Source: Patescibacteria group bacterium (GTDB taxonomy: Bacteria > Patescibacteriota > JABMPQ01 > JAQVVF01). From it: a DNA stretch of 64,000 nt. The DNA is taken from contig JBAZSC010000001.1 in assembly GCA_041662665.1 (NCBI GenBank), positions 193,511 through 257,510 of the forward strand, read 5' to 3'. The position numbers were made by a program, and so were the translations under genes. This document shows positions 3,943 to 62,016 of this stretch, piece after piece (positions within the stretch are counted from its first letter, which is position 1; every line of letters starts with the position of its first letter). The notes under the pieces were generated by a model. That model was not told where the DNA came from. It saw only the letters and a program-made list of their open reading frames with translations, and ran no database searches.

Positions 3943-5328
3943 TTATTTATTTTTTGGTTCAACGTGGACAATTACTCTTTCCACATTTGTAATATTTTCG
4001 CGAATAATATTTTTTAATTTTGTTGCTTGTGCATGAGATTCTTCCAAAGATAAATTATTATCAGCATAGCAATGCATAGTAATATATAATTTGCCATTAA
4101 TTTTGCGAGCAGAAATATTATGAACATCAGCTAATTTATCAAAATTCTTAGCTAATTCCTGCACTTTTTGATTTATTGTTGAAAGTTCTGCATCAGAAAT
4201 TTTTTCACTTTTCAATTCTTTTGTAACAATTGGATCAATGTGAATATTTAATTCAATCTTGGAATCCAAAGCATCTTGGATTAATTTCTCTAATAAACTT
4301 GCTTTTTCATGCGCTTCTTCTACTGTCAAATCATTCGGCAATTCTAAATCAAAGCTCACAAATTTATTATTATCCAAATTTTCAACGACAATGTCATGAA
4401 TAAACATGCTATTTTTTGCAGATAATATTTGAATAGTTTCAACTATTGTTTCATCTTCGGTTTTAATTGAGCTGGTATGAATTGCTATTTCCGAACCAGG
4501 CACTTTTTTGTTAATTTCTGTTTTTAGGCCATTTACAATTTCATCAACTTTTTCAAGTGAAAGTCTTCGGCTAATTTTTATACCCATATCAATAAAAATA
4601 TTTGGACCTAATGATCTAACTCTAATATAATCAGCAATTATTTTTTCATTTGATTTTAAAATAATTTCATCAACAGTTTCTTTGACGCCTTTTGGTGCAG
4701 TATCAACCAAGACATCAATTGTTCTTTTTCCTAATCTGTATCCTGCAATAAGAACAAAGACTGCTACGCCAATTGCTGCGATTGAATCAGCACCTTTTAT
4801 ACCGAAAGCTACAAAAACCAAGCCTAATAAAACAACTGCCGAGCTATAGATATCAGAATTAAAATGCAGAGCATCAGCTTCCAGAGCTTGGCTATTTGTT
4901 GATTTTGCGACTTTGTATAATGCTCTAGACCTTGAAATATCAATTATTATTGAAATAATGATAATCACAAAAGCATACCATGTTGCATGGACTTCTGTAT
5001 CATGTTCAATTAATCTTTTAATAGCTTCATAAATAATCCAAAAGCTTGTTAGAAATAATAATCCAGTTTCAATCAATGCTGACACGCTTTCTATTTTTCC
5101 ATGGCCATATGGATGATCAGAATCTGCAGGTTTGTCGCCAATTTTTACCGCAAAATAGGTCATAACAGCTGCCACCAAATCTAAAGCTGAATGAGCAGCT
5201 TCAGAAATAATGCCCATACTGCCAGTTAAAATACCAACAACTAATTTCATTGCAGTCATTAAAAAACTTGCGATTACAGAACTTAAGGCAACATTCTCTT
5301 TTTTGTGATTTATATGGTTATGCGACAT
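3943..5328 (-). CDS. Cation diffusion facilitator (CDF) family metal efflux transporter with a duplicated cytoplasmic C-terminal domain
   Basis: It has six TM helices with the CDF signature (SEAAHSALD..., HPYGHGKIE). Two C-terminal domain-like modules follow (residues ~300-380 and ~385-455). Confidence 0.8.
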   Translation of the reverse strand: MSHNHINHKKENVALSSVIASFLMTAMKLVVGILTGSMGIISEAAHSALDLVAAVMTYFAVKIGDKPADSDHPYGHGKIESVSALIETGLLFLTSFWIIYEAIKRLIEHDTEVHATWYAFVIIIISIIIDISRSRALYKVAKSTNSQALEADALHFNSDIYSSAVVLLGLVFVAFGIKGADSIAAIGVAVFVLIAGYRLGKRTIDVLVDTAPKGVKETVDEIILKSNEKIIADYIRVRSLGPNIFIDMGIKISRRLSLEKVDEIVNGLKTEINKKVPGSEIAIHTSSIKTEDETIVETIQILSAKNSMFIHDIVVENLDNNKFVSFDLELPNDLTVEEAHEKASLLEKLIQDALDSKIELNIHIDPIVTKELKSEKISDAELSTINQKVQELAKNFDKLADVHNISARKINGKLYITMHCYADNNLSLEESHAQATKLKNIIRENITNVERVIVHVEPKNK

Positions 5329-7524: not shown

Positions 7525-8960
7525 ATAATTTTGTTTTTATTTTCTAAAACCATTTTCAAAAAGTTCTCAATATATTTTTTTCCTTGATTATATGGCACAT
7601 GAATTTCTGCATGAAATTGCTCGCCATAAATAAATCGTCTAGTGCTTTTTTGCGCTTGGACATAAGTTGATTTTGCAATTACCTCGAATTCTTCGGCAGG
7701 CTCAGCAACTTCCCAGCTATGAACTTCTGGTGCTGTAAAATTATCTTTAAATCCTTCAAAAATTGGATCTTTTTTCTCAAGCTTTATTTTTGTCATGCGA
7801 GTTTTTGGTTCAATCGCCGAAATATCAGACCAGCCCATAGACCTTGCTCTTGTATATCCATAAGCCATTGCCAAAAATTGATGGCCAGCGCAAATTCCAA
7901 GCAATGGAATGTCAGTTTGCCTGATAATTTCAAATTCGCCATTATGTTCAAACATTGGCAGATTTGGATAATCAGCATTATTGCCAGATAGGATAATTGC
8001 TTTTGGTTTATTTTTTAGGCTGTTCAACATCTCCATCGATACTTCAAAATAGGGAACAGTAACAGTTTTTAAATTAAAATTTAATCCTTCAATATGTTTT
8101 GCTAAATCAGTAAAAGTAAAACCATTATGTTCATTTCCAACAATTAAAACATAATCTTTTTCTGGTACAGTTGGCAATTTTGGCTTGCCAGGTGAATATA
8201 ATATTATTTCATTTAGTTGTGCTGCATAACCAATAAATTCTTTAATTAATAATTTAAAATAACGAGCAGTTACTGGTTTAAAATCAATAATATTTCTAAA
8301 TGTATCATTATTTTTAAATTCTGTACCAGAAATTTCTGTCCAAGTTTTATTATCATTGCTTGTCTGCCAAACAAAATTTTTGAGCCAGCCATCTGCATCA
8401 GTGGGTGTGGATAACATCCAAATTCGTGAAATTTCAATTGGTTTTCCTAAATCAAATTTTACAAAATGTTGATTTTCGCAAGGTGGTGGGCTTTGCCAAA
8501 AAGTTACTAAACCTGGATCATCATAATCAATAATATTTTTGGCATTATAGCCTCCAGAGACTTCGATATCTTTTACTTTTGCTCGCGTCAAATTCATAAA
8601 ATGATCATCTGATTCAATGTCTACAAAAAAACGAGAAACAGTCCAATCACTTTTGCTTGTTTCTGTGATTGCTCGAACTCTCCAATAATATTGTTGTTTG
8701 TCCTTCAAAGAATTTTCTTTTTCAATTTTTTTATCAGTTACAAACTCGCCATTTTCTGGCACATTTTTATATTCAATTAAATTTTTAGAATCAAAATTTT
8801 TATTCGTATCTAATTGAATTTCATAATGCCTATTTTTTGGCCCACCAGTTGCATTGAAAAATGAAAGTAGAGGATCAAGTTCTGTCACAATGACATCCCA
8901 ACTTGGATTATTGTTTAATTTTGGCGGAATAATTTCGTGATTTATTGTTTTTGTTGTCAT
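7521..8960 (-). CDS. Fusion protein: FN3-like N-terminal region, then an F5/8 type C (discoidin) domain, then a class-I glutamine amidotransferase (GATase1) domain
   Basis: The C-terminus has LLGICAGHQFLAMAYG and GEQFHAEIH, the Cys-His-Glu triad of GATase1. The central segment WQSPPPCENQHFVKFDLGKP...ARYFKLLIKE...QLNEIILYS matches discoidin-domain signatures. No signal peptide is present. Confidence 0.6.
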   Translation of the reverse strand: MTTKTINHEIIPPKLNNNPSWDVIVTELDPLLSFFNATGGPKNRHYEIQLDTNKNFDSKNLIEYKNVPENGEFVTDKKIEKENSLKDKQQYYWRVRAITETSKSDWTVSRFFVDIESDDHFMNLTRAKVKDIEVSGGYNAKNIIDYDDPGLVTFWQSPPPCENQHFVKFDLGKPIEISRIWMLSTPTDADGWLKNFVWQTSNDNKTWTEISGTEFKNNDTFRNIIDFKPVTARYFKLLIKEFIGYAAQLNEIILYSPGKPKLPTVPEKDYVLIVGNEHNGFTFTDLAKHIEGLNFNLKTVTVPYFEVSMEMLNSLKNKPKAIILSGNNADYPNLPMFEHNGEFEIIRQTDIPLLGICAGHQFLAMAYGYTRARSMGWSDISAIEPKTRMTKIKLEKKDPIFEGFKDNFTAPEVHSWEVAEPAEEFEVIAKSTYVQAQKSTRRFIYGEQFHAEIHVPYNQGKKYIENFLKMVLENKNKII

Positions 8961-20699: not shown

Positions 20700-21097
20700 G
20701 AACTGTTTTTGAAATTGAAGATAAATTAAAAAAGAAAAACTGCCAGCCAGAAATAATTACTCAAGTCATAAAATATTTAAAAGACAAAAATTATCTTAAT
20801 GATAATGAATATGGGAAAACCTTTTTAGAATTTGAATTAAAAAACAGACCATGTGGCAGAATGTTATGCTATAAAAAATTAGTTAAAAAGGGGATTAGTA
20901 AAGATTTAGCCAGTCAAGTTTTGGATGAAAATTATCCAGATGAAAAAGAAATAGAATTAGCCAAAATTTTAGCAGACAAAAAAATGCGTGAATTAAAATT
21001 TAAAGACAAAAAAACAATCTATCGCAAATTAGGTTATTATTTAAACAGCAAAGGTTTTTCCAGCACAACAATATTAGAGATTATCGAAAATTTCTAA
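20636..21097 (+). CDS. recX: RecX-family recombination regulator (the ORF is open from 20579)
   Basis: Repeated three-helix modules rich in K and L (…NRPCGRMLCYKKLVKKGISKDLASQVLDE…KTIYRKLGYYLNSKGFSSTTILEII) are typical of RecX. Confidence 0.55.
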   Translation: MLNQQLNQAIIYSQKLLAQYPRTVFEIEDKLKKKNCQPEIITQVIKYLKDKNYLNDNEYGKTFLEFELKNRPCGRMLCYKKLVKKGISKDLASQVLDENYPDEKEIELAKILADKKMRELKFKDKKTIYRKLGYYLNSKGFSSTTILEIIENF

Positions 21098-21269
21098 TTT
21101 CTGTTTTCTGTTTTCTGTTTTCTAATACTTGTGGGTATCTTAATTGATGAAATTATTATTATTTGCTATATTATATCTAAGAACTTATTAACATTGAAAA
21201 TCAAAATTAACAACTGAATACATTTTTTCCACAAAATTTTTATATTTTTAGTTTTTTATATTTTTAAAT

Positions 21270-22322
21270 ATGCAACTTCAAGAGCTTTTAGCAGAAGTTA
21301 TAAAACAAAATGCATCTGATCTCCACATCACAGTTGGCAAGCCACCGACAATCAGAGTTGATGACAAGTTAATTCCAATTGCCAATCAAGAAGTACTGAC
21401 ACCAGAAACAACAGAAAATCTAGTTTTGAGTTTGTTAACAAATGAACAAAAAGAAATTCTGATGCAAGATAAAGAGTTTGATTTTTCATACGCTTATAAT
21501 GATCAAGGCAGATTTCGTGTTAATGCCTATTTTCAAAAAAGCTATCTAGCTGCATCTTTAAGATTAATTCCTGCAAAAGTTAAAACTTTTGAAGAATTAA
21601 ATTTGCCAGAAATTTTAAAAAGTTTTGCGAGTGCTCAACAAGGTTTTTTCATTTCTTGCGGTCCTGCTGGTCATGGAAAAACAACAACAGTCGCTGCAAT
21701 GGTTGACTATATTAACAAGCAAAGGTCAGATCATATTATTACTATTGAAGATCCAATTGAATATACTTTTATTCAAGACAAATGCTTAATTGATCAGCGC
21801 GAAGTCCATCTTGATACTCATTCTTTTCCGCAAGCTTTAAAATCTTGTTTGCGTCAGGATCCAGACGTTATCTTTGTCGGTGAAATGCGAGATCTGGAAA
21901 CAATATCAACAGCTGCAACTTTGGCAGAAACAGGTCATTTAGTTTTATCAACTTTACACACTAATAACGCTGCCGATACAATTGACCGTATGGTTGGTGT
22001 TTTTCCGCCTCATCAACAAGAACAAATTCGATTTCAATTAGCTAGTTCATTATTGGGCATGATATCTCAAAGACTAATTCCAAGAATCGACAAGCCAGGC
22101 CGTATTGTTGTTGCCGAAGTTTTAAAAATCAATGCTGCAGCCAGAAACTTAATTCGCGAAGGCAAAACATATCAGTTAAACAATATAATTTTAACCAGCA
22201 AACAAGAAGGCATGATTTCTTTAGATACTTCATTAGCAGAATTGGTTAAATCAAAAATAATCAGCAAAGAAAATGCCTTAGCTTATGCAATTGATCAGAA
22301 AAATTTGAGTATGCTATTATAA
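21270..22322 (+). CDS. pilT: Type IV pilus retraction ATPase PilT
   Basis: A 350-aa GspE-family ATPase without the N-terminal GSPII domain. It has Walker A GPAGHGKTTT, Asp/His boxes and the C-terminal PilT motif. Confidence 0.8.
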   Translation: MQLQELLAEVIKQNASDLHITVGKPPTIRVDDKLIPIANQEVLTPETTENLVLSLLTNEQKEILMQDKEFDFSYAYNDQGRFRVNAYFQKSYLAASLRLIPAKVKTFEELNLPEILKSFASAQQGFFISCGPAGHGKTTTVAAMVDYINKQRSDHIITIEDPIEYTFIQDKCLIDQREVHLDTHSFPQALKSCLRQDPDVIFVGEMRDLETISTAATLAETGHLVLSTLHTNNAADTIDRMVGVFPPHQQEQIRFQLASSLLGMISQRLIPRIDKPGRIVVAEVLKINAAARNLIREGKTYQLNNIILTSKQEGMISLDTSLAELVKSKIISKENALAYAIDQKNLSMLL

Positions 22323-23064: not shown

Positions 23065-23493
23065 ATGAAAAACCAAAAGGGTTTTACTTTAATTGAGATA
23101 CTAGTTGTTGTTTCTATCGTCGGAATTCTTGCATCAATTGCTCTAATTGGCGTTGATGATGCCAGAAAAAAAGCACGTGATGCTCGGCGAGTTTCTGATT
23201 TGTATCAGATTTCTCAAGCCATTGAAATGTATAACAATGCAACAGGTCAGTATCCAGAAAATTTATCATCAAATCTTACCTCATATTTTCCAAGAGGATT
23301 ACCCAAGGATCCAAATCCAAGTAATAATTACGATTATATTCGTAGTCTCTCCAAATGTTATATTTTGCGTGCCAAATTAGATCGTAATAATAAAGATATC
23401 CTAAAAAGAGATTTAGATAATGAAATTACCTGCGGAGCATCAATAGATTGCAATGACGATTCTCTTTTCTATTGTGTAGGAAATAATCAATGA
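23065..23493 (+). CDS. Second type IV pilin / pseudopilin with a prepilin signal
   Basis: MKNQKGFTLIEILVVVSIVGIL... is followed by a C-terminal domain containing a Cys pair. Confidence 0.75.
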   Translation: MKNQKGFTLIEILVVVSIVGILASIALIGVDDARKKARDARRVSDLYQISQAIEMYNNATGQYPENLSSNLTSYFPRGLPKDPNPSNNYDYIRSLSKCYILRAKLDRNNKDILKRDLDNEITCGASIDCNDDSLFYCVGNNQ

Positions 23494-24433: not shown

Positions 24434-25948
24434 ATGAACAAGATCAAGTATTATCTGGCAGGCATTTTTTGTGTTTGCCTAATGTTTGGAATCAGTCATT
24501 TTGCTTTGGCTGATTCTACAATTTCTGGGAAAATTTTAAAAACCAATGGTGATCCAGTAATAGGCGATACTGTTTATCTCCGCAGTAATAGCAATGTTTA
24601 TGTCGATACTACTGATGCCAATGGTAATTATACTTTCACTGTTGATGACGCACCGATCACTGATAGCTATACGTTAATTCCTAATGACATTAATTATATA
24701 TACGAAGTAGGATATATAATAGCTCATTCTGAATATTTTTATCCGCAATCTAGACCTATTTCAATTGTCGATGGTGTAAATCAAGCAGACATCGATTTTA
24801 CCATGAGTCATCATGGAATGGTATCTGGAAAAATCACCGATAGTAGTGGCAATCCGATTGATGAAGTTTTGTTCTATATGTGGGATAAAAATGGCCAATC
24901 TTTTTATGAATATTCCTATTCTGATATTCTAGGTAATTATTATGCGACTCCGCTATATGGTTCGAGCCAAAGCATTAATGCGCAAGGAAATTATCAGGCT
25001 TATGTTTTCAAAGAAGGTTATTTGCCAGTATATATAAGTAGCTTAGCAATTGTCGATAATCAAACTCTTTCACAAAATGTTACTTTAACAGGAAAAAGTC
25101 ATGTTTCTGGCAATATAAAATCGAAAAAAGGAACGAATCTAGCAGATATTGTTGTCAAAGTCTATCGTTTAGGCGATGATGACGCTTATGCTGTTTCACA
25201 AAGCGATGCAAATGGTAACTATCAAATTGATCTTGGTCGGACAGGAGATCCAGATGATTTTGGTGATTTTTCTGCCAAAGGAAAATATATTCTAGAAGTT
25301 GCAGGCGATGATACTTCTGCATATACAAAAAAATCAAAAAATATTTCTGTAACATCTGATGAATCAAGCCTTTCCAAAAATTTTACCTTAAGCAAAAAGA
25401 AAGGTTCTCTTTCAGGTAAAGTTAAGACCAAGAAAAATACAAAAATTGAAGGCGCAATGGTTAAAGTCAATTTAATCAGTGATCCACAGATTACTTCTAC
25501 AACATATTCTGATTCAAGCGGCAGATATAGTTTTGCTCACTTAACAACTGGCAATTATCAAATTACTGTTAGTAAAGATGGCTACGTTAATTATGAAATG
25601 ACTAATAAGAAAATCAAAAAAGGAACTAAAAAGACTTTTAAATTAACAACAGCTGGTAATATCTCTGGTTATGTTTTTGACAATGTTACCAAGAAACCTC
25701 TTTCTGGTATTTATGTTTATCTAGTCAATTCAGATATTTATGCTTCCACCAATAGCCAAGGCTATTATGTTATAAAAAACGTTCCTACAGGTAATCGCAA
25801 GATTTATGTAAGGAATTATAACTATCAAGAACAATTTTATTTCAAAGCTTCAAGTATCAGCAAGGCAAAGACAATCAAAGTCAAGAAAAACAAAGAGAAT
25901 AAAAAAAATAATTTCTATTTGACATCTTATCAAAGAACATATCGATAA
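24434..25948 (+). CDS. Secreted protein with multiple carboxypeptidase-regulatory-like (CarbopepD_reg / Cna-B-like) beta-sandwich repeats
   Basis: A signal peptide is followed by at least five repeats of the form SG.I...G.P..G..V.L......TD..GNY.F. Confidence 0.6.
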   Translation: MNKIKYYLAGIFCVCLMFGISHFALADSTISGKILKTNGDPVIGDTVYLRSNSNVYVDTTDANGNYTFTVDDAPITDSYTLIPNDINYIYEVGYIIAHSEYFYPQSRPISIVDGVNQADIDFTMSHHGMVSGKITDSSGNPIDEVLFYMWDKNGQSFYEYSYSDILGNYYATPLYGSSQSINAQGNYQAYVFKEGYLPVYISSLAIVDNQTLSQNVTLTGKSHVSGNIKSKKGTNLADIVVKVYRLGDDDAYAVSQSDANGNYQIDLGRTGDPDDFGDFSAKGKYILEVAGDDTSAYTKKSKNISVTSDESSLSKNFTLSKKKGSLSGKVKTKKNTKIEGAMVKVNLISDPQITSTTYSDSSGRYSFAHLTTGNYQITVSKDGYVNYEMTNKKIKKGTKKTFKLTTAGNISGYVFDNVTKKPLSGIYVYLVNSDIYASTNSQGYYVIKNVPTGNRKIYVRNYNYQEQFYFKASSISKAKTIKVKKNKENKKNNFYLTSYQRTYR

Positions 25949-26040
25949 ATTAAGATAATAAAAAGACTAGATAAAATCTAGTCTTTTTTGTATTAGAGAT
26001 TAATTAGAGAAAAGTATTAGAGATTTAATTCGAGAAAAAT

Positions 26041-26925
26041 TTATTCCGCTATCTCAATCATTCGATTAGCATGATCTTTTCCTTTTGTATTTACCTCAAA
26101 ATAATGATAATAACTGTCATCATTTTTCATAAAATCATATTGAGGTAAAGATCCAGCACTTCCAACAATTGTCATTGTAATACTTAGCAAATTAAATGGA
26201 AAATACATATGCAGATGTCCAGAATATACTTCTTTGACATTATTTTTTGGTTCATTAATTATTTCATAAAATTTATCATAGCTTGCAAATGTCTGCTTTG
26301 TTCCGCCATCATTAATATCAAAAACATCTTCAAAAGGAATTTTTGTTGGTCGATGCATAAAAATAAAAGCTGGAAATTTATTTGTTGCCAAATCTTGTTT
26401 AAGCCAGTTTAACTGTTCATCAGAAAATCCTTCTAAATTCCATGAATTATCCAAAATTACGAAATGATTTTTTTCATAATCAAAAGATTGATAAAGATCT
26501 TTATAATAATTTAAAAAAACAGATTTATCTTGTTCATCAGCTAGAATATCATGATTGCCAGGAACAATATAATAAGCAATATTCAAATTTTTCGCCATAT
26601 AATTTTTGAATTCTTGAAATTCAGCATCAGTTCCATTTTGTGTAAAATCTCCTAAATGGATAAAAAATTTTGCATTGCTTTTGTTTACTTTTTCAACTAT
26701 TTGTTTGTAGATTTTGTTCAAATCATCATTTTGTCTGCCAGAATCAGAGGCAACAGCAAAAGTAAAATCAGTTTCATTGGTCACAAGATTTTTTATTTTT
26801 TCAGTTATCCTGGCTTTATTAGCCGAATTATCAATCCTTGGTTTTAAAATATAAAAATAAAAACCAGCCAGTGCCAACAGGAATAATATTAATGCTAAAA
26901 TAAAACATGAAATATACTTTTTCAT
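26041..26925 (-). CDS. Membrane-anchored calcineurin-like metallophosphoesterase
   Basis: It has an N-terminal TM helix and the motifs GDFTQNG, GNHD and GHLH of the MPP superfamily. Confidence 0.7.
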   Translation of the reverse strand: MKKYISCFILALILFLLALAGFYFYILKPRIDNSANKARITEKIKNLVTNETDFTFAVASDSGRQNDDLNKIYKQIVEKVNKSNAKFFIHLGDFTQNGTDAEFQEFKNYMAKNLNIAYYIVPGNHDILADEQDKSVFLNYYKDLYQSFDYEKNHFVILDNSWNLEGFSDEQLNWLKQDLATNKFPAFIFMHRPTKIPFEDVFDINDGGTKQTFASYDKFYEIINEPKNNVKEVYSGHLHMYFPFNLLSITMTIVGSAGSLPQYDFMKNDDSYYHYFEVNTKGKDHANRMIEIAE

Positions 26926-27013
26926 GAGTTTATGATATCATAAAAAAGAGAAAACAGAAAACAGGAAAAAAACAAGCACTGTTTTCTATTTTCTGTTTTC
27001 TAATAAATATATC

Positions 27014-28066
27014 ATGCCTTCATCACCCGAACAATATCCGCAACTAGCCGACATCAAAGAATCAGGAGAAGTAAAAAAAGCTCCTGGTTTTGAACTTGAA
27101 AAATCAAAAGAGTTAGATCAATTTGCTGCAGAAGCAAACAAGATAGCTGAAGCAATTAAAGAAGACAAACCAGTTTTGCTTGAGCAGGTTTTAGAATTAA
27201 GAGAAGCATTAGAAAAAATGGTTGAATCAGATCCAAGAATAGAAGCAAAAAGACTATTTGGTGAAGGATATATGGGACCTGAAGAAATTGAAAAACATTT
27301 TACTTTAGAAAATGGTGAAAAACTATTTGAATATACGTCTGAAGAAAAGCAAAAAATTGTTAGAATGTTGCGTGAAAAATTAGATGATCCGCAGATTAGA
27401 GATTTAATTAAGCGAACACCAAAAGAAGAATTGCGAGAAAGATTCCAGCTTTTTCTTTTTCCTGATAAATTCAAGGATGGCACGCCTGTTACAATGAAGA
27501 GTCTTTATGAAAGATTCCAGCCAGAAATGACAAGGCGAGGCTTAGGAGAATTATTTCATGGCAAAATTGACGATAACGATTGCTGGTATTATAACAAGGA
27601 AAATAAAGAACCTTTTTTTACGTCTGATTCCAACCCATTATCTTGGAAACTATTAAGCAGAGGCAATCTTAAAGGATCTGAGAATCATGATTATTTTGAA
27701 GAAACAAAATTTTTACGAGAATACTTAAGACAAAACAATTTAGCAACTGAAGATGAACTCAACGAATGTAGCGATGAGAGATTAGTAGAATTAAGGCAAC
27801 TAAATGAGCGTGATTGGAAGAAAGCGGCAAAACAATTATCAGAAATCATGATTAATAAAAACTATCGAATTAATCCTTTAGAAGCTGTTTTTATGCATTC
27901 AATCAAGGAAAGCGTGTTGATGAGCGCTAGGACAGCCAAATGTTCTTCTTCTGGTGGATATATTTACGTCGGTTTTTATGGACATGGTATAGGTATTGGT
28001 CAATCATGGAATGGGAATGATTTAACCAGAGGGATTTCGAATTTGGGCGTTGCACTTTCCTGCTAA
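27014..28066 (+). CDS. Hypothetical E/K/R-rich cytoplasmic protein, tandem paralog A
   Basis: A 350-aa protein with no TM or signal peptide. The N-terminal ~170 aa are ~85-90% identical to the next ORF. Confidence 0.55.
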   Translation: MPSSPEQYPQLADIKESGEVKKAPGFELEKSKELDQFAAEANKIAEAIKEDKPVLLEQVLELREALEKMVESDPRIEAKRLFGEGYMGPEEIEKHFTLENGEKLFEYTSEEKQKIVRMLREKLDDPQIRDLIKRTPKEELRERFQLFLFPDKFKDGTPVTMKSLYERFQPEMTRRGLGELFHGKIDDNDCWYYNKENKEPFFTSDSNPLSWKLLSRGNLKGSENHDYFEETKFLREYLRQNNLATEDELNECSDERLVELRQLNERDWKKAAKQLSEIMINKNYRINPLEAVFMHSIKESVLMSARTAKCSSSGGYIYVGFYGHGIGIGQSWNGNDLTRGISNLGVALSC

Positions 28067-28128
28067 TTTTTTTGAAGACTAGTTGAGTTAGCTAGAAATT
28101 ATGCGTTTAAAAGTAGATAAATAATTTG

Positions 28129-28176
28129 ATGACAAAAGAACAAGCCAAAATCAGAATTGAAAAACTAAAAAAATAG
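28129..28176 (+). pseudogene. Duplicated 5' stub of ligA (MTKEQAKIRIEKLKK*), marking the junction of a tandem duplication
   Basis: atgacaaaagaacaagccaaaatcagaattgaaaaactaaaaaaatag is ~80% identical to the start of ligA at 29270. Confidence 0.6.
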
Positions 28177-28187
28177 TATTTTAACAA

Positions 28188-29249
28188 ATGCCATCATCAC
28201 CAGAACAACAACCACAACTAACAGATATCAAAGAATCAGAAGAAGTAAAAAAAGCTCCTGGTTTTGAACTTGAAAAATCAAAAGAGTTAGATCAATTTGC
28301 TGCAGAAGCAAACAAGATAGCTGAAGCAATTGAAGAAGACAAACCAGTTTTGCTTGGTCAGGTTTTAGAATTAAGAGAAGCATTAGAAAAAATGATAGAA
28401 TCAGATCCAAGAATAGAAGCAAAGAGATTATTTGGCGAAAGCTATATGGGTCCAGATGAAATAGAAGCATATTTTACAGTTCAAGAAGAGAATGGAAGAG
28501 TTGAAAAGCTATTTGAATACACTCCAGAAGAAAGAAAAAGAATTAATCAAATGCTACGAGAAAAGTTAGATGATCCGCAAATCAAAGATTTAATCGCTAG
28601 AACTCCAAGAGAAGAATTGCGAGAAAGATTTCAGCTTTTTCTTTTTCCAGATAAATTCAAAGATGGAACACCTGTTACAATGAAAAGCTTAAACGATAAA
28701 TTTAGCGCCGAAATGGAAAAACGAGGTCGAGGATCTTTGATGTATAAACATCCAAGAGAAAAGGAATGGTATTATAATGACGATCGTAGAGAAAATTTCT
28801 TTACAACAAATTCAAATTTATTATCTTGGAAGCTACTAAGTAGGAGCACTCTTAAAGGATCTATGGGCCATGATTGTTTTGAAGAAACAAAATTTTTAAG
28901 AGAATATTTAAGACAAAACAATTTGGCAGGTGAAGACGAACTAGCTGAGTGCAGTGATGAGAGATTGACAGAATTAAAACAATTGAATGGACAAGATTGG
29001 AAAGAAGCATCAAGGCAATTATCAGAACTTAAAATAAATAAAAACTATAGAATAAATCCATTAGAAGCTATTTTCATGCACGCAATTAAACAAAGCGAAA
29101 TATATGGCAGAGCTGCTAGAACAGCCTGGCGTTCTTCTTATGGTGGAATGCTTAGCGTCGGCGAATATGGACAAGGTATGGCTATCGGCGCTGATTATGA
29201 TAATTTAGATAAAGAAATTTCCAATGTTGGTATTGTACTCTCTCTCTAG
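28188..29249 (+). CDS. Hypothetical E/K/R-rich cytoplasmic protein, tandem paralog B
   Basis: A 353-aa paralog of 27014..28066. The C-terminal half is ~60% identical. Confidence 0.55.
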   Translation: MPSSPEQQPQLTDIKESEEVKKAPGFELEKSKELDQFAAEANKIAEAIEEDKPVLLGQVLELREALEKMIESDPRIEAKRLFGESYMGPDEIEAYFTVQEENGRVEKLFEYTPEERKRINQMLREKLDDPQIKDLIARTPREELRERFQLFLFPDKFKDGTPVTMKSLNDKFSAEMEKRGRGSLMYKHPREKEWYYNDDRRENFFTTNSNLLSWKLLSRSTLKGSMGHDCFEETKFLREYLRQNNLAGEDELAECSDERLTELKQLNGQDWKEASRQLSELKINKNYRINPLEAIFMHAIKQSEIYGRAARTAWRSSYGGMLSVGEYGQGMAIGADYDNLDKEISNVGIVLSL

Positions 29250-29269
29250 CAAAATTTAGAAACAATATT

Positions 29270-31333
29270 ATGGATAAGCAACAAGCTAAAATCAGAATTG
29301 AAAAATTAAAAAAAGAAGTTAACCATCATCGTTATCTTTATCATGTTTTAGACAAGCCAGAAATTTCTGACTCTGCTTTGGATTCTTTAAAAAATGAATT
29401 ATTTAAATTAGAACAGCAATATCCAGAATTTATAACATCAGATTCTCCAACTCAAAGAGTGGGAGGAGAAGCGCTCAAAGAATTCAAAAAAGTTAAGCAT
29501 GATGTTCGCATGCTCTCTTTTAACGATGCTTTTTCAAAAGTTGATATGCATGATTGGCAAAAGAGAATGGAGAATTATTTAAAAGAAAAAAAAGAATTTA
29601 ATTTTTATTGCGAGCCAAAAATTGATGGTTTGGCAATTTCATTAATTTATAAAAATGGTCAATTTATTTTAGGTTCAACTAGAGGTAATGGCTTTATCGG
29701 TGAAGATGTGACCATAAATTTAAAAACAATTGAAAGCATTCCTCTTAATTTAGAAAAAAAAGATCACAAAATTTATCTCAAAAATTATAATTCAACTGAA
29801 TTAAAAAAAGTTGATCAGCTTTTAGAAAAATTTAATTTAAATAGTTCAGAATTAGAAGTTCGTGGCGAAATTTACTTAGATAAGAATGATTTTGAAAAAT
29901 TAAATAAAGAACAAGAAAAAAATCATCTCCAAATTTTCGCCAATCCGAGAAATGTTGCTGCAGGTAGTATCAGGCAATTAAATCCAAAAATTACTGCCTC
30001 AAGAAAACTAAAATGTTTTGTTTATCATGTTATCACAGACTTAGGCCAAACAACTCATGAGCAAGAACATTTAATGCTTAATCGTTTAGGTTTTAGAATT
30101 AATCCTTACACTGAATTAGCAAATAACATGGAAGAAGTTTTTACATATCACGAAAAAATTGGCAAAATCAGAAATAGGCTAGAATATGAAATTGATGGTG
30201 TCGTGGCTATTATTAACGATAACAAATTGTGGCAAAAATTAGGAATTGTTGGCAAAGCACCTCGTGGTTGCATGGCTTACAAATTTCCTGGCAGAGAAGC
30301 AACAACTATTGTAGAAGATATTAAAGTTCAAGTAGGCAGAACTGGTGCCTTAACGCCAGTTGCACATTTGAAGCCAGTGCCACTTGGTGGTGTCACAATT
30401 TCGCATGCCACTTTGCATAATATGGATGAAATCAAGCGTTTAGGAATTAAAATTGGCGATACTGTTATTATTCAAAGAGCAGGCGATGTTATTCCTGATG
30501 TTGTTAAAGTTCTCACAAATTTACGGACTGGCAAAGAAAAAGAATTCCACATGCCAAGCAAATGTCCAATTTGCGGATCAAAAGTTTTTAGAAAAAAAGA
30601 AGAGGTTGCTTATTATTGTTCCAACAAAAATTGTTTTGCCTTGCAAGAGCGAGCAATCACTCATTTTGTTTCAAGAACTGCTTTTGATATTGAAGGATTA
30701 GGTCCAAAAATAATTGAGCAATTAATCAGCAATGATTTAATTGATAATGCTTCAGATTTATTCACTTTAAAAATTGATGATTTAAAACCATTAGAAAGAT
30801 TTGCTGAAAAATCAGCGACCAACATAATCAATTCAATCAACAAAGCAAAAGATGTTACTCTAGCAAAATTTATTTATGCTTTAGGCATTCGTCATGTTGG
30901 CGAAGAAACTGCATTTGACCTTGCTAATCATTTTGGCAATTTAGAAAATCTAGAAAAAGCGTCACTTTCAGAATTAGAAAAAATTAGAGATATTGGAGGC
31001 GTTGTTGCAAAAAGCATTCATGAATATTTTCAAAATCAGAAAAACCTTGACTTTGTTCATAATTTAATAAAAAATGGCATAAGGATCCAAAAACAAAAGC
31101 AAATCGCTCAAAAATTAGCTGGCAAAACTTTTGTTTTAACAGGAACGCTTGAAAAATATTCCAGAGACGAGGCTAAGAAAAAAATCCGTGATTTAGGCGG
31201 AGACGTGTCATCATCTGTTAGCTCCGAAACTAATTATGTTGTTGCAGGTTCTGAGCCAGGTTCCAAATATGACAAAGCCAAGGCGCTCAAAATTAAGATT
31301 CTTAATGAAAAAGAGTTCCTCGATTTAATTTAA
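29270..31333 (+). CDS. ligA: NAD-dependent DNA ligase LigA
   Basis: The KxDG adenylation motif (EPKIDGLAISL), OB fold, Zn finger (CPICGSK...C), HhH and C-terminal BRCT are all present. Length is 687 aa. Confidence 0.9.
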   Translation: MDKQQAKIRIEKLKKEVNHHRYLYHVLDKPEISDSALDSLKNELFKLEQQYPEFITSDSPTQRVGGEALKEFKKVKHDVRMLSFNDAFSKVDMHDWQKRMENYLKEKKEFNFYCEPKIDGLAISLIYKNGQFILGSTRGNGFIGEDVTINLKTIESIPLNLEKKDHKIYLKNYNSTELKKVDQLLEKFNLNSSELEVRGEIYLDKNDFEKLNKEQEKNHLQIFANPRNVAAGSIRQLNPKITASRKLKCFVYHVITDLGQTTHEQEHLMLNRLGFRINPYTELANNMEEVFTYHEKIGKIRNRLEYEIDGVVAIINDNKLWQKLGIVGKAPRGCMAYKFPGREATTIVEDIKVQVGRTGALTPVAHLKPVPLGGVTISHATLHNMDEIKRLGIKIGDTVIIQRAGDVIPDVVKVLTNLRTGKEKEFHMPSKCPICGSKVFRKKEEVAYYCSNKNCFALQERAITHFVSRTAFDIEGLGPKIIEQLISNDLIDNASDLFTLKIDDLKPLERFAEKSATNIINSINKAKDVTLAKFIYALGIRHVGEETAFDLANHFGNLENLEKASLSELEKIRDIGGVVAKSIHEYFQNQKNLDFVHNLIKNGIRIQKQKQIAQKLAGKTFVLTGTLEKYSRDEAKKKIRDLGGDVSSSVSSETNYVVAGSEPGSKYDKAKALKIKILNEKEFLDLI

Positions 31334-44445: not shown

Positions 44446-44790
44446 ATGAAAATTAAAAAATTTGAAGAAATTATTTCTTGGCAGAAAGCCGGAACTTTAA
44501 GTCTAAATATATATAAACTTTTTAAGCATTCAAGAGATTTCAGTTTTAGAGATCAGATTCAAAGAGCCTCGATATCAATGATGAATAATATTGCTGAAGG
44601 ATTTGAAAGAAAAACTAATAAAGAATTTAAAAATTTTCTTTATATCGCTAAAGGCTCTTGCGCTGAAGTCAGATCAATGTTATATATTGCTTTCAAACTA
44701 GAATACATAAATCAAAAACAGTTTAATGAAAATTATAAATTATGTTTAGAAATATCAAAAACAATTTCAGGTCTAATCAAGACTTTATGA
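44446..44790 (+). CDS. Four-helix-bundle protein (23S rRNA IVS family), copy 2, inside the por operon
   Basis: ISMMNNIAEGFERKTNKEFKNFLYIAKGSCAEVRSMLYIA is present. It is flanked by inverted 'agttataaagttt' repeats. Confidence 0.75.
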   Translation: MKIKKFEEIISWQKAGTLSLNIYKLFKHSRDFSFRDQIQRASISMMNNIAEGFERKTNKEFKNFLYIAKGSCAEVRSMLYIAFKLEYINQKQFNENYKLCLEISKTISGLIKTL

Positions 44791-45771: not shown

Positions 45772-45856
45772 CACTCCAACACTTTTTTAAAAACACTAAA
45801 ACATTAAATTTTTGTGTGTTCAAGTGTTCGAGTGTTTAAGTGTTCATCTCAACGTC

Positions 45857-46267
45857 ATGACAAAATTCCAAGAAAAACTGAAATTAAAAATGGATGAGTA
45901 TGTGCATTTCGTTTATCTTGTAACAAAAAAGTTTCCAAGAGATGAATTATATGGAGTTACATCACAAATTCGTCGAGCTAGCCTTTCTGTAATACTCAAC
46001 TATCTCGAAGGCTATGCTAGAAGAAGACCGGCTGTTCAGTTGAATTTTTTTGAAACCTCATATGGTTCATTGAAAGAATCAAAATATTTGTTGCATTTTT
46101 CGATGAAAGAAAAATATTTATCAATAGAGGATTATAAGCATGCTATCAAATTAGCAGAAGAAATTGGTGCAATGCTTTGGTCTGAAATAAAATCATTAGA
46201 CAATAAGACGCAAAAACACCCTAAAACTTTAACAAAGAAACACTCGAATACTAAAACACTCAAATAG
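45857..46267 (+). CDS. Four-helix-bundle protein (23S rRNA IVS family), copy 3
   Basis: YGVTSQIRRASLSVILNYLEGYARRR is present. It is flanked by the exact 17-bp direct repeat cgagtgtttaagtgttc at 45839-45855 and 46291-46307. The ORF is open from 45812. Confidence 0.7.
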   Translation: MTKFQEKLKLKMDEYVHFVYLVTKKFPRDELYGVTSQIRRASLSVILNYLEGYARRRPAVQLNFFETSYGSLKESKYLLHFSMKEKYLSIEDYKHAIKLAEEIGAMLWSEIKSLDNKTQKHPKTLTKKHSNTKTLK

Positions 46268-58697: not shown

Positions 58698-59150
58698 ATG
58701 GTTATAATAACAAAATCAGGCCAACCATTATTATATGAAAAAGAATCTTATGTATTAAGAGGAATATGGATGGATATTTATAATTCTTTGGGTCCAGGAC
58801 ATAAAGAAATTGTTTATGGAAATGCATTTGAACATACATTAAGAAATAATAAAATTCCATTTATTAGAGAACCAATTATTTCATTGATTTATGACGGAAA
58901 AAAGGTTGGTACTTATCGTCCTGATTTTATAACTTTTAACGAAATTATCGTTGAGTTTAAGTCTTTGAATATAATTCCCCAAGTTTTTTATAAAAAGATC
59001 TATCAGTATTTAAAAAGTTCTCAATATAAATTAGCTTTTATCGTTAATTTTGGAACAACCGAATTACAAATTATCAGACGTATTTATGACATCAAACGTC
59101 AAAAAAAATCAGTGGCATCCGCGTGCAATCCGTACAAATTCGTATTGTAA
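58698..59150 (+). CDS. GxxExxY protein (PD-(D/E)XK-like fold family), inserted inside the pilus operon
   Basis: GHKEIVY (GxxExxY), RPDFIT and EFK motifs are present, with a C-terminal YLK...AFIVNFG. Confidence 0.7.
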   Translation: MVIITKSGQPLLYEKESYVLRGIWMDIYNSLGPGHKEIVYGNAFEHTLRNNKIPFIREPIISLIYDGKKVGTYRPDFITFNEIIVEFKSLNIIPQVFYKKIYQYLKSSQYKLAFIVNFGTTELQIIRRIYDIKRQKKSVASACNPYKFVL

Positions 59151-62016
59151 AGGCCAAAGTCTAGTTGAAATTGTCATTGCTTTAGGAATTTTCGTTATAA
59201 TCACAAGTGGCATAATAACGCTGTCTTTAGGTTCTCTAATTTCCGAACGCCAAGGCGGAGAAATTACTCAAGCCACTTTTTTTATGCAACAAGGCGCTGA
59301 AGCAACGAGATCAATTCAAGATTTAGCATACAATAAATTAGCATATTATTCAGATGGCTTAACTCATGGCCTTGATAATTCTTCAGGCGTCTGGGAGTGG
59401 TCAGGATTAAATAACATTAAAGATCAATTTACCAGAACGATAAAAATAGAAGACGTAACGCGTGATACCTCTGGCAATATTGGAGCAGGAATAAATGACT
59501 TAGAAACAAAAAAAATAACCGTTTCATCAGATTGGGCATTTGCTTTAGGCCGTGCCAATCAGGTTCAATCAATTTTTTATCTTACAAATTGGAATCGAGG
59601 ATTATGGGTTGAAGATACAGTTGCTGATTTTAGCGATGGCATTTTTAATGATACTTATGTATCCAATGATTTTGGCGGAGAAATAAAACTTGCAAAAAAT
59701 TCAAATACAACTTGGCAATGCGGTACTCAATCAGGAACTTTAAATCTTCCTTCCGTCGTCAATGCTACAGATGTTGTTACAGTTGGCAATATTTCTTACG
59801 TTACGACTCTTAATAATACAAGTGGTGCGGAATTTTATATTATAGATGTTTTCAATCCAGCTAGTCTTTCAATACTAGGATCATTGAATATTGGCACTGC
59901 TGCAAATGGAGTTTTTGTTAGTGGCAATTACGCCTATGTCGCTACCAACAGCGATTCTCAAGAACTAATGGTTATTGACATTACTAATCCTGGCAGTTTA
60001 TCAATTAATGGATCATATGATGCTGATTTCGCCAGCAATGCCAATAATGTTTTTGTTGATTCAGGCTATGCTTATCTTGTTACTAACATTAATAATTCTG
60101 GCGGACCAAACCCAGAATTCTATGTATTAGATGTTTCTACTCCAACCTCGCCTAGCTTGGAAGGTTCTTTAGATATCGGCGCAAATATTTTTTCTGCTTT
60201 TTATGATAATAATAAAGTTTATGTAAGTTCTTCTAATAATAGTGCTGAAATGAACATTGTCGATGTCTCAACAAAAAATAATCCTAACATTATTGGTTCG
60301 TACGATGCTCCATCGAGCTTTGATGGAACTGACACTTTTGCTTCTGGCAACACCGCTTATTTAACAACTAACGATAATGGCATTGGAGATGAATTTTATG
60401 TTCTAAATGTTACTAATCCTGGAAGCATAACAGTTATTGGCTCTTATAATGTTAACGGCAATGCCCTTTCTGTTTTTGTTGATCCAGGTGCTACAACAGC
60501 ATTTATTGGAAACTCTCAGAGCCTTCAGCAATTTAAAGTAATAGACATCACAACTCCATCATCACCGACTTTGCTCAAATCTTTTAATGCTAATGGTAAT
60601 GTTCGCAGTGTTTATTTTGCTAACAATAAAGTCTATTTAACTTCAGACAGCGGTACTCAAGAATTTCAAATTTTTCAACCAAACACTGGTAATTCCTGGG
60701 ATTGTATCAAGCAAACTGGTATTTATGATAGTACTGGCCTGCAAGATGCAACTGACGTTAATGTGGTTGCAGTTAGCAACCGAGCCTATATTACTACAGT
60801 TAATAATGCTGCAGGAAATGAATTCTATATTCTTGATATTTCAACACCGTCAACGCCAACTCTGCTTGGTTCTCTTGACTTGAACGCTGATGCTAACGCT
60901 CTGTATATCAATGGCAATTACGCCTATATTGCTACGTCTAGCGATAATCAGGAATTAATGGTTGTAAACATTACGAATCCAGGATCTTTGTCTATCAATG
61001 GTTCATATGATGCCGACTCCAATGTTGATGCCACTGATGTTTTTGTCTCTGGAAATTATGCTTACTTAACTACTAAAGTAAACTCAACTGTTGGCATTAA
61101 TCCAGAATTCTATATTCTTGATATTACAACTCCTACCAACCCCGCGCTAACTGGATATTTGGAGCCTGATACCAATGTAAATTCTGTTTTTTATTCCAAC
61201 GATAAAGCATATCTTGCCACAATTAAAGACATTCAAGAATTAATTATTGTTGATGTAACAAACAAAGCTATTCCTGCAGTTGCTGGAATCTATGATGCGC
61301 CAACTGGGATTGATGCTTCAGCTGTCTGGGTTAATGGCAATACTGCCTATTTTGTTAGAAAAAATATGATCGGTAGCAATCCAGAATTTCAAGTTCTTGA
61401 TGTTACAAATCCTGCTTCAGTTTTTGAAATTGGCAGCTTAGACCTTCAAGCAGCCGGTCTATGCATATATGTTGACAACAATCATGCCTTTGTAGGCACC
61501 TCTGCCACAGATCAAGAAGCGCAAATTATTGATATCTCTAATCCCGCAAGTCCATCTCGCATTAATTCCATTGATGCCAATGGCGATGTTAATGGAATAT
61601 CCTCTGCCGTCAACGCTATTTATCTTGCGACCGCAAATAATTCTGAAGAATTTCAAATCTGGAGTCAAGTTGCAACATACCAGACATTTGGCACTTATGA
61701 ATCATCAGAGTTCGGTCCAGTTTCTAATTTTAATTTAATAAAATGGACTGAAAATATTCCTTCAGTTAATGAAGATTTGCTAGTTCAAATCAAGACCGCT
61801 CCTGATAATGCTGGCGTTCCAGGAGTTTGGTATTCAAATTGGTGTGGACCGTTAGGCAAGATCGGCAATGATACCAACTTTTTTACTGATTCAAATGGCC
61901 AGATAATTAATCCAAATATGATTGGAGATAATTGGATAAAATATAAATTGACTTTAACCGGTAATGGTACTGATACTCCAGCCTTGCGAAGCCATACAGT
62001 TAATTATAAACCATAA
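59086..62016 (+). CDS. Modular type IV pilin: prepilin-like N-terminus (…KGQSLVEIVIALGIFVI) fused to a ~900-aa LVIVD-repeat beta-propeller-like domain
   Basis: A class-III signal-like KG|QSLVE is followed by a hydrophobic helix. There are at least 12 repeats of the pattern G.YAY(V/L)(A/T)T..........(L/F).V(I/V)D(I/V)(T/S)NP..., for example QELMVIDITNPGSLSINGSYDA. The ORF is open from 59050, and its 5' end overlaps the GxxExxY gene. Confidence 0.6.
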   Translation: MTSNVKKNQWHPRAIRTNSYCKGQSLVEIVIALGIFVIITSGIITLSLGSLISERQGGEITQATFFMQQGAEATRSIQDLAYNKLAYYSDGLTHGLDNSSGVWEWSGLNNIKDQFTRTIKIEDVTRDTSGNIGAGINDLETKKITVSSDWAFALGRANQVQSIFYLTNWNRGLWVEDTVADFSDGIFNDTYVSNDFGGEIKLAKNSNTTWQCGTQSGTLNLPSVVNATDVVTVGNISYVTTLNNTSGAEFYIIDVFNPASLSILGSLNIGTAANGVFVSGNYAYVATNSDSQELMVIDITNPGSLSINGSYDADFASNANNVFVDSGYAYLVTNINNSGGPNPEFYVLDVSTPTSPSLEGSLDIGANIFSAFYDNNKVYVSSSNNSAEMNIVDVSTKNNPNIIGSYDAPSSFDGTDTFASGNTAYLTTNDNGIGDEFYVLNVTNPGSITVIGSYNVNGNALSVFVDPGATTAFIGNSQSLQQFKVIDITTPSSPTLLKSFNANGNVRSVYFANNKVYLTSDSGTQEFQIFQPNTGNSWDCIKQTGIYDSTGLQDATDVNVVAVSNRAYITTVNNAAGNEFYILDISTPSTPTLLGSLDLNADANALYINGNYAYIATSSDNQELMVVNITNPGSLSINGSYDADSNVDATDVFVSGNYAYLTTKVNSTVGINPEFYILDITTPTNPALTGYLEPDTNVNSVFYSNDKAYLATIKDIQELIIVDVTNKAIPAVAGIYDAPTGIDASAVWVNGNTAYFVRKNMIGSNPEFQVLDVTNPASVFEIGSLDLQAAGLCIYVDNNHAFVGTSATDQEAQIIDISNPASPSRINSIDANGDVNGISSAVNAIYLATANNSEEFQIWSQVATYQTFGTYESSEFGPVSNFNLIKWTENIPSVNEDLLVQIKTAPDNAGVPGVWYSNWCGPLGKIGNDTNFFTDSNGQIINPNMIGDNWIKYKLTLTGNGTDTPALRSHTVNYKP

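Follow-up and report, generated by a model that had tools for sequence, protein, structure and literature searches.

The closest described systems are the diversity-generating retroelements (DGRs), in which variable proteins are diversified. The DGR targets of candidate phyla radiation (CPR) bacteria are typically without recognisable domains (PMC8144416). In the Bordetella phage BPP-1, the target site of Mtd consists of the initiation of mutagenic homing sequence (IMH) together with a hairpin/cruciform (Guo et al. 2011, PMC3240598), and in Thiohalocapsa PB-PSB1 the DGR target loci have been duplicated and recombined (Dore et al. 2024, PMC10907252). The locus described here lies in a stretch of 64,000 nucleotides (the window; G+C content 31%) of a metagenome-assembled genome (MAG) deposited at NCBI as 'Patescibacteria group bacterium', with locus tags of the WC663_ series. 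Two adjacent genes, A and B, precede the DNA ligase gene ligA in this window. By homology, they can be assigned to a Patescibacteria (CPR) DGR variable-protein family, and they are probably an old tandem duplicate of such a variable-protein gene, with both copies having left the DGR circuit.

27014 to 28066, + strand: copy A, an open reading frame (ORF) of 350 residues (NCBI WC663_01175), assigned to the CPR DGR variable-protein family
28188 to 29249, + strand: copy B, an ORF of 353 residues (NCBI WC663_01180), exact match to MFA6295944.1

The family is identified as DGR targets because of the genomic context of its members and because of adenine-specific mismatches between the variable repeat (VR) and the template repeat (TR). 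Genes for bAvd and an RVT_1 reverse transcriptase (RT) follow family members in four independent cassettes (L008, L009/L010/L011, L012 and L013); in L009 (P0005, 62% identical to A) and L008 (P0164, 27% identical) the family gene is followed immediately by bAvd and then by RVT_1. Each cassette except L013 also holds a repeat of the last ~115 nt of the gene, the TR, and the VR of these relatives is the C-terminal ~110 nt, being the last ~38 codons. The VR/TR mismatches of four members are as follows.

L009, P0005: mismatches at 15 of 28 TR adenines and at 2 of 81 other TR positions
L012, member of 688 residues: 19 mismatches at TR adenines, 0 elsewhere
L008, P0164: 16 mismatches at TR adenines, 1 elsewhere
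L017, P0006: mismatches at 15 of 27 TR adenines and at 2 of 82 other TR positions

The TR of L008 is common to a second target, an AAA_5 protein of 935 residues encoded upstream of P0164 (L008:5112-7919), whose VR (7783-7899) has 17 mismatches at TR adenines and 3 elsewhere. These cassettes are canonical DGRs, and the family gene encodes their variable protein. In such relatives, the RT with bAvd copies the TR and rewrites the VR, thereby randomising the positions that are adenine in the TR. Over its full length (100%), copy A has 62% identity to P0005; its identity to P0006 is 63%, and both of these are targets with cognate TRs. Two variants of the cassette are seen. In L017 (2874-4300), P0006 has its cognate TR at 4118-4226, ~230 nt downstream, but no adjacent Avd or RT gene, and the next genes encode a Trp-repressor-like helix-turn-helix protein and proteins without Pfam matches; the arrangement resembles a DGR that is split or has no RT. 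L011 (1599-2635), a locus from another sample, has the same variable protein, and its VR is identical; behind it come an Avd match in two pieces and an RT that is only 86% identical over the aligned part, and the cassette may be decaying or a variant.

The proteins themselves are poorly covered by the databases. No match above threshold is found for A and B in Pfam, NCBIfam, PADLOC (0 hits) or PDB sequence searches, a profile search with the family against the PDB finds nothing, and among 65 aligned family members there are only isolated, weak Pfam matches of single members; weak EnY2 matches, which do not reach the Pfam cut-off, occur in the close family only. The JGI name for copy B (28188-29249) is 'PAS domain-containing protein'; Pfam detects no PAS domain. 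Close homologs (60-71% identity) are few, with A being 62-71% identical to P0002-P0010. A survey of copy numbers in relatives gives six copies in the MAG of the window, a genome of at least 1.1 Mb (WC663_01175, 01180, 03575, 03680, 03780/85 and 04835, that is A, B, three more full-length copies and one gene split by an assembly gap), and three copies in the related MAG CAZNOH01. An exhaustive HMMER search finds 252 family representatives. Their conserved part (residues ~145-335) is often C-terminal in proteins of up to 1290 residues, and an AAA_5 ATPase domain is present in 6 of the 10 long relatives scanned (those of ~860 residues or more). The invariant and near-invariant columns are mostly glycine or hydrophobic, together with Arg285, Thr160, Thr231 and Ser312, so that few conserved polar residues suggest catalysis. 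The AlphaFold2 models are confident (pLDDT of 90 for the whole protein and 92.8 for residues 140-350). The layout is a disordered N-terminus, a helical region (residues ~30-143) and a C-terminal domain of ~200 residues, by which, in analogy with other DGR variable proteins, the proteins may bind ligands; in the model, the VR equivalent forms the last β-strands of this domain. One paralog holds a constant position right behind a Wzz-like gene in three genomes (P0008, L002:1810-3497; P0009, L005:9292-11017; P0004, L014:5288-7071). It sits in a glycosyltransferase/polysaccharide cluster, with the signatures of a DGR target being clear at one extreme (P0009) and lost at the other (P0004).

The organisation of the locus between copy A and the end of ligA is given by the following features.

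28067 to 28128, + strand: spacer that goes back to the gene-ligA junction of the ancestor; it is collinear with that of L004 (62 versus 64 nt) and has a degraded relic of the CTTGR element described below (0 CTTGR motifs)
28129 to 28176, + strand: 15-codon stub of the 5' end of ligA, ATG to TAG
28177 to 28187, no strand: duplication junction, the 11 nt from the stop codon of the stub to the ATG of B, as read from the sequence
29250 to 29269, + strand: shortened B-ligA spacer, in which, by alignment with L004, a deletion of ~45 nt has removed the expected CTTGR site (0 CTTGR motifs)
29270 to 31333, + strand: intact gene ligA for the NAD-dependent DNA ligase, with the Pfam adenylation, OB, Zn-finger, HhH and BRCT domains all found

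The stub encodes MTKEQAKIRIEKLKK and matches the start of ligA at 29270 (MDKQQAKIRIEKLKK...) at 13 of 15 residues (tblastn) and at 39 of 48 nt, with a core of 35 nt that is 94% identical (blastn E=3e-9 within the window). It ends with TAG after its 15 codons, and the ligase domains are present only in the downstream gene; it is a duplication scar, not a gene. The comparison with locus L004 of CAZNOH01 shows the arrangement with one copy. The gene order of L004 is as in the window (prepilin peptidase, CarboxypepD_reg protein, metallophosphoesterase on the minus strand, family gene, ligA, gatC and gatA), and a single family gene (P0007) stands directly upstream of ligA, without a stub. A tandem duplication of a segment that starts in the ~14 nt before the ATG of the gene and ends at codon 15 of ligA predicts that the end of A, its spacer and the stub are collinear with L004. 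This is in agreement with the alignment, in which the 3' end of A, the 62-nt spacer and the stub align with the gene end, the 64-nt spacer and the ligA start of L004, and in which ~45 nt are missing from the B-ligA spacer. The left breakpoint falls somewhere in the ~14 nt that precede the ATG, where the A+T-rich sequence prevents a finer placement, and the right breakpoint is after codon 15 of ligA. The A/B pair is a tandem duplication with a ligA scar, as the original prediction had it when it placed the junction inside ligA and described a 15-codon stub. Copies A and B are also each other's closest relatives in residues 1-80 and 206-300 (79% versus at most 69% to others in residues 206-300). 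In residues 81-175 each is nearer to other paralogs, which points to some mosaic exchange with other family members.

Several observations concern the surroundings of the family genes. As only ~11 nt upstream of the ATG of B were duplicated, B would depend on read-through from A; the promoter and terminator scans gave nothing better than shuffled sequence. Between A and the divergent metallophosphoesterase gene, there is an imperfect inverted repeat (26941-27002; 24-nt arms, 88% complementary) made of CTGTTTT heptamers. Its motif CTGTTTTCTGTTTTCTGTTTTCTAATA also occurs at 21094-21127, upstream of the ORF 21270-22322, and has 0 matches in shuffled sequence. In CAZNOH01, the family gene that adjoins ligA is immediately preceded by a pair of genes for DUF6922 and AbiEii (a type IV toxin-antitoxin system; L004:9052-9966). 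The same pair is found upstream of the paralog WC663_03680 in the genome of the window (L006:53-967) and is absent from the window locus; these differing locations point to a rearrangement of the module between the two genomes.

The paralogy of A and B, as originally proposed, is confirmed by 72% protein identity (BLASTP E=0). On the DNA level the two are 91% identical over the first 290 nt and ~77% identical over the remainder, differing at 264 of 1068 aligned columns, indels included, with both reading frames intact. The region of high identity is an internal tract.

27067 to 27249, + strand: gene-conversion tract in A (partner 28241-28423), with 5 differences in 183 nt
28241 to 28423, + strand: gene-conversion tract in B (partner 27067-27249)

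Within the tract, the longest exact run is 91 nt (27067-27157 and 28241-28331), and a run of this length is found in 0 of 20,000 permutations of the difference positions. Third-codon positions differ at 2 of 65 sites inside the tract and at 115 of 282 sites outside (Fisher p=1.4e-10). The synonymous divergence (dS) is ~0 for codons 16-75 and is saturated at 1.2 for codons 98 to the end (Nei-Gojobori), with a ratio of nonsynonymous to synonymous divergence (dN/dS) of ~0.19. The 183-nt tract is a recent A/B gene conversion inside an old duplicate pair, the age of the duplication following from the saturation of synonymous sites outside the tract. The original prediction of gene conversion is thus supported, as is its mention of identical stretches of ~90 nt. 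Its description of N-terminal halves with ~85-90% identity is correct in that a highly identical region exists; this region is codons ~18-79 and not the N-terminal half. The C-terminal halves were said to be ~60% identical; outside the conversion tract the protein identity is mostly 70-82%, with two very divergent patches, residues 176-205 (38%) and 301-350 (46%). Nor is the duplication recent, as had been claimed, since dS is ~1.2 outside the tract and the stub is just 81% identical to ligA.

The last ~40 codons of A and B are the equivalents of the VR.

27944 to 28066, + strand: VR equivalent of A, no longer of the canonical type; mismatches at 7 of 23 TR adenines and 29 of 69 other positions, 11 gap columns, p=0.89
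29133 to 29249, + strand: VR equivalent of B, more eroded than that of A; mismatches at 12 of 27 TR adenines and 33 of 78 other positions, 9 gap columns, p=0.51

When compared with the two family TRs (of L009 and L017, both from other genomes), neither copy shows an adenine bias. For A, the mismatches are 8 of 25 TR adenines versus 22 of 77 other positions with one TR, and as listed above with the other; for B, the corresponding numbers are 13 of 28 versus 33 of 77, and as listed. These alignments need 9-20 gap columns. A strong adenine bias (p<=3e-5) is found in seven relatives (P0005, P0006, P0007, P0009, P0010, P0008 and P0170), and two of these, P0008 and P0170, belong to the genome of the window itself. 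The VR equivalents of A and B are ~63% identical and differ by a 6-nt indel and by many synonymous third-position T/C differences, which rules out that one TR has recently been copied into both. The conserved IMH-like 3' end that is common to VR and TR in the subfamily is GGGCGTTTCTTTTTCCCG; the IMH-like 3' end GGGCGTTTCTTTTTCCCGC is kept at 15 of 19 positions in A and at 9 of 19 in B, counts for which no functional threshold is known. The 64-kb window has no RT, and next to A and B there is no Avd homolog; with two RTs and two Avds as queries, tblastn gives nothing in the window at E<0.05. A TR for the 3' end of A or B is also not found in the window, either by blastn or by an adenine-tolerant scan, which recovered the TR of L009 as a positive control and whose best matches in the window have 24-25 non-adenine mismatches, as in shuffled controls. 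Among the best 120 of 6863 matches of an RT search, none is more than 57% identical to the RT of L009 and none is labelled WC663, a result that is uninformative on the genome of the window. Remote DGR targets are known, and the missing RT and Avd nearby therefore do not exclude that A and B are targeted. Elsewhere in the window, two stand-alone ORFs encode four-helix-bundle proteins resembling 23S_rRNA_IVP/bAvd (44446-44790 and 45812-46267) and flank a gene similar to 2-oxoacid:ferredoxin oxidoreductase. The second of these ORFs is bracketed by AACACT/AGTGTT-rich repeats, and there is no reverse transcriptase near either of them.

A further feature of the targets is a cluster of CTTGR motifs, arranged as direct repeats within ~50 nt of the stop codon, which is present in all five confirmed target genes. 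This feature was derived in the present analysis and is not an established one; motifs were counted in the 70 nt after the stop codon, and the background is 0.13 per 60 nt. The counts are 4, 4, 4 and 2 after four of the confirmed targets (L012 reaches 3 if the cluster may begin at the stop codon) and 3 after the fifth, the AAA_5 protein of L008, with 4 and 3 after the inferred targets of L007 and L003. The clusters are at the following positions.

L008: 7915-7952 and 8994-9046
L009: 9033-9060
L012: 5643-5670
L017: 3905-3932
L007: 513-540
L003: 11042-11069

The cluster at L008:7915 led to the second VR of this locus, in the upstream AAA_5 protein, and was thus a successful blind prediction. No CTTGR motif (0) occurs in the 70 nt after the stop codons of A, B, P0004 and P0008, and no hairpin is predicted after the VR in the cognate targets or in A and B (z-scores from -0.4 to +1.6). 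The only two CTTGR clusters of the window, at 60832-60883 (+ strand; inside the ORF 59050-62016) and 23290-23321 (- strand), do not stand behind a family gene and are probably due to chance. The CTTGR cluster may be a target-side recognition signal of the DGR lineage of the family. It is a more tentative proposal, with a probability well short of even, that this CPR DGR lineage marks its targets with direct CTTGR repeats instead of the hairpin/cruciform of the BPP-1 type, and that loss of the cluster retires the target. If so, A (cluster degraded) and B (45-nt deletion) would be a natural before/after series of target decommissioning after duplication, the motif would allow live and fossil DGR targets of CPR genomes to be told apart by sequence alone, and the element would extend the target-recognition rules of BPP-1 to the largest reservoir of cellular DGRs.

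The copies A and B show none of the testable target signatures and are probably not DGR targets any more. We infer that no other TR elsewhere in the genome serves them and that they now evolve conventionally. The remote paralog P0004, in the genome with the L009 cassette, has no bias, has indels and lacks a CTTGR cluster, so that retired members coexist with a working DGR. The history of the locus would then be as follows. A segment that begins shortly before the ATG and reaches codon 15 of ligA was duplicated in tandem, giving copy A, the ancestral spacer, the ligA stub, copy B and the intact ligA. A later gene conversion of ~183 nt between A and B homogenised codons ~18-79. Both copies, which have indels in the VR scaffold, eroded 3' ends and a CTTGR cluster that is degraded (A) or deleted (B), would have left the DGR circuit and would now evolve by ordinary mutation, duplication and conversion.

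This reading has to be weighed against other explanations, of which two concern the origin of the pair. Assemblies do break at family paralogs, with contig L001 ending 82 nt into B and L006 and L007 ending within family genes, as would be expected if a repeat had been expanded or mis-joined and the stub were not real. However, L001, an ENA contig (k141) from a different assembler, is the same as 25641-28269 of the window with 0 mismatches and runs through A, spacer and stub to 82 nt into B, which shows that the junction is not peculiar to one assembly, and a JGI contig (P0011) starts inside B. Together with the second assembly, the 264 differing columns with their indels and the two open reading frames, which are under purifying selection, make such an assembly artefact, the alternative named with the original prediction, very unlikely, its probability being close to nil. 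That a paralog from elsewhere was inserted or recombined into the locus to give B (or A), and not a local tandem duplication, is also highly improbable. The mosaicism would fit such an origin, since in residues 81-120 A is nearest to P0003 (88%) and B to P0002 (86%), with A and B being 70% identical to each other, but the ligA stub and spacer behind A are the prediction of a tandem duplication, and A and B are closest to each other in residues 206-300.

Regarding function, the original prediction suggested an effector/immunity or adaptor family of unknown function, with a diverging C-terminus. This is not supported; the relatives are DGR variable proteins with adjacent bAvd, RT and TR, and the divergent end corresponds to the former variable repeat. 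An effector pair of the polymorphic toxin/immunity or anti-phage defence type, diversified through recombination, is improbable as a reading of the family. The family is multi-copy and mosaic, an AbiEii toxin-antitoxin pair adjoins some copies, and the AAA_5/STAND-like fusions resemble the DGR-diversified conflict systems described in PMC10907252; against this, the PADLOC search is empty, the Pfam and NCBIfam matches are below threshold and none is to a toxin or immunity family, conserved polar residues suggestive of catalysis are few, and A and B are paralogs of the same family rather than toxin plus antidote. More probable than these, and still unlikely, is that A and/or B are live DGR targets, rewritten in trans by a second TR, with its own length and scaffold, elsewhere in the genome. 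A DGR has been active in the lineage, as the genome of the window has copies of the canonical type: P0170 (WC663_03780) has an adenine-biased VR (p=5e-8) and 4 CTTGR motifs, and P0170 and P0003 (WC663_03680) differ at 15 of 38 VR residues and at ~6% of the residues outside the VR; remote targets and architectures with a TR but without an adjacent RT also occur in the family (L017). This is countered by the divergence of the two VR equivalents, which cannot both be recent products of one TR, by the eroded IMH-like 3' ends (far more so in B than in A), by the missing downstream CTTGR element in both copies, and by the finding of no protein variants of A or B among 15 billion proteins. Some observations weigh against retirement of the two copies or against the wider DGR interpretation. 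The search for TR and RT covered 64 kb, whereas the genome measures at least 1.1 Mb, and a second, unseen TR might match the distinct VR length and scaffold that A, B and P0002 have in common. Over the final 30-45 codons of A and B, dN is about equal to or above dS (pN 0.39 versus pS 0.29); relaxed constraint, DGR activity in the past and diversification that still goes on would all fit this pattern. The proposed role of the CTTGR cluster as a target signal is a correlation, seen over 13 sites that are targets or candidates. The C-type lectin fold is the usual scaffold of DGR variable regions; the structure models are confident, but Foldseek finds no significant match in the PDB or BFVD, with C-type lectins appearing only at E values of 5-9. 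On balance, an old tandem duplicate that has left the DGR circuit remains the likely account of A and B.

The duplication itself is ordinary, and the locus has some value for the DGR field through the identity of the family, the occurrence of live beside retired targets and the candidate CTTGR element. A Patescibacteria gene family that had no Pfam, NCBIfam or source name in these searches becomes recognisable as a DGR variable-protein family, with six copies in one small genome. As the family holds live targets beside retired ones, the share of a genome that DGRs diversify would be overestimated in surveys where every paralog counts as a target. The locus also documents the multiplication of a target and its subsequent decay, through a tandem duplication that clipped the neighbouring gene, gene conversion and the loss of target-site signals.

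When compared with BPP-1 Mtd, the VR of the family likewise occupies the very C-terminus; a conserved G/C-rich block, which the TR also has, forms its end, and a conserved non-coding element comes within ~50 nt behind it. In contrast to BPP-1, this element consists of direct CTTGR repeats without a predicted hairpin, and Foldseek matched the model neither to Mtd nor to any other solved variable protein. As in Thiohalocapsa PB-PSB1, target genes multiply by duplication and swap segments, and the targets of one locus are diversified unequally; unlike there, the event in the window is a simple tandem duplication that clipped a housekeeping gene, no transposon remnants are seen, and the genome, of at least 1.1 Mb with 6 copies, is tiny. 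The closest agreement is with the CPR DGR variable proteins (RT clade 2 of Roux et al.). Homologs of A and B, full-length ones (62-65% identity) as well as distant ones (27-41%), have been confirmed as targets, as bAvd, RT and TR lie next to them and their VR/TR mismatches are adenine-specific. The long relatives carry AAA_5, and A and B are, like CPR targets (PMC8144416), without a signal peptide, transmembrane segment or recognisable Pfam domain. Copies A and B differ from these proteins in having no cognate TR in reach, no adenine bias, indels in the VR and no CTTGR cluster, and they look like retired members of the CPR DGR family. What the A/B locus offers is thus an instructive case of a system whose kind is already known, not a new kind of system.

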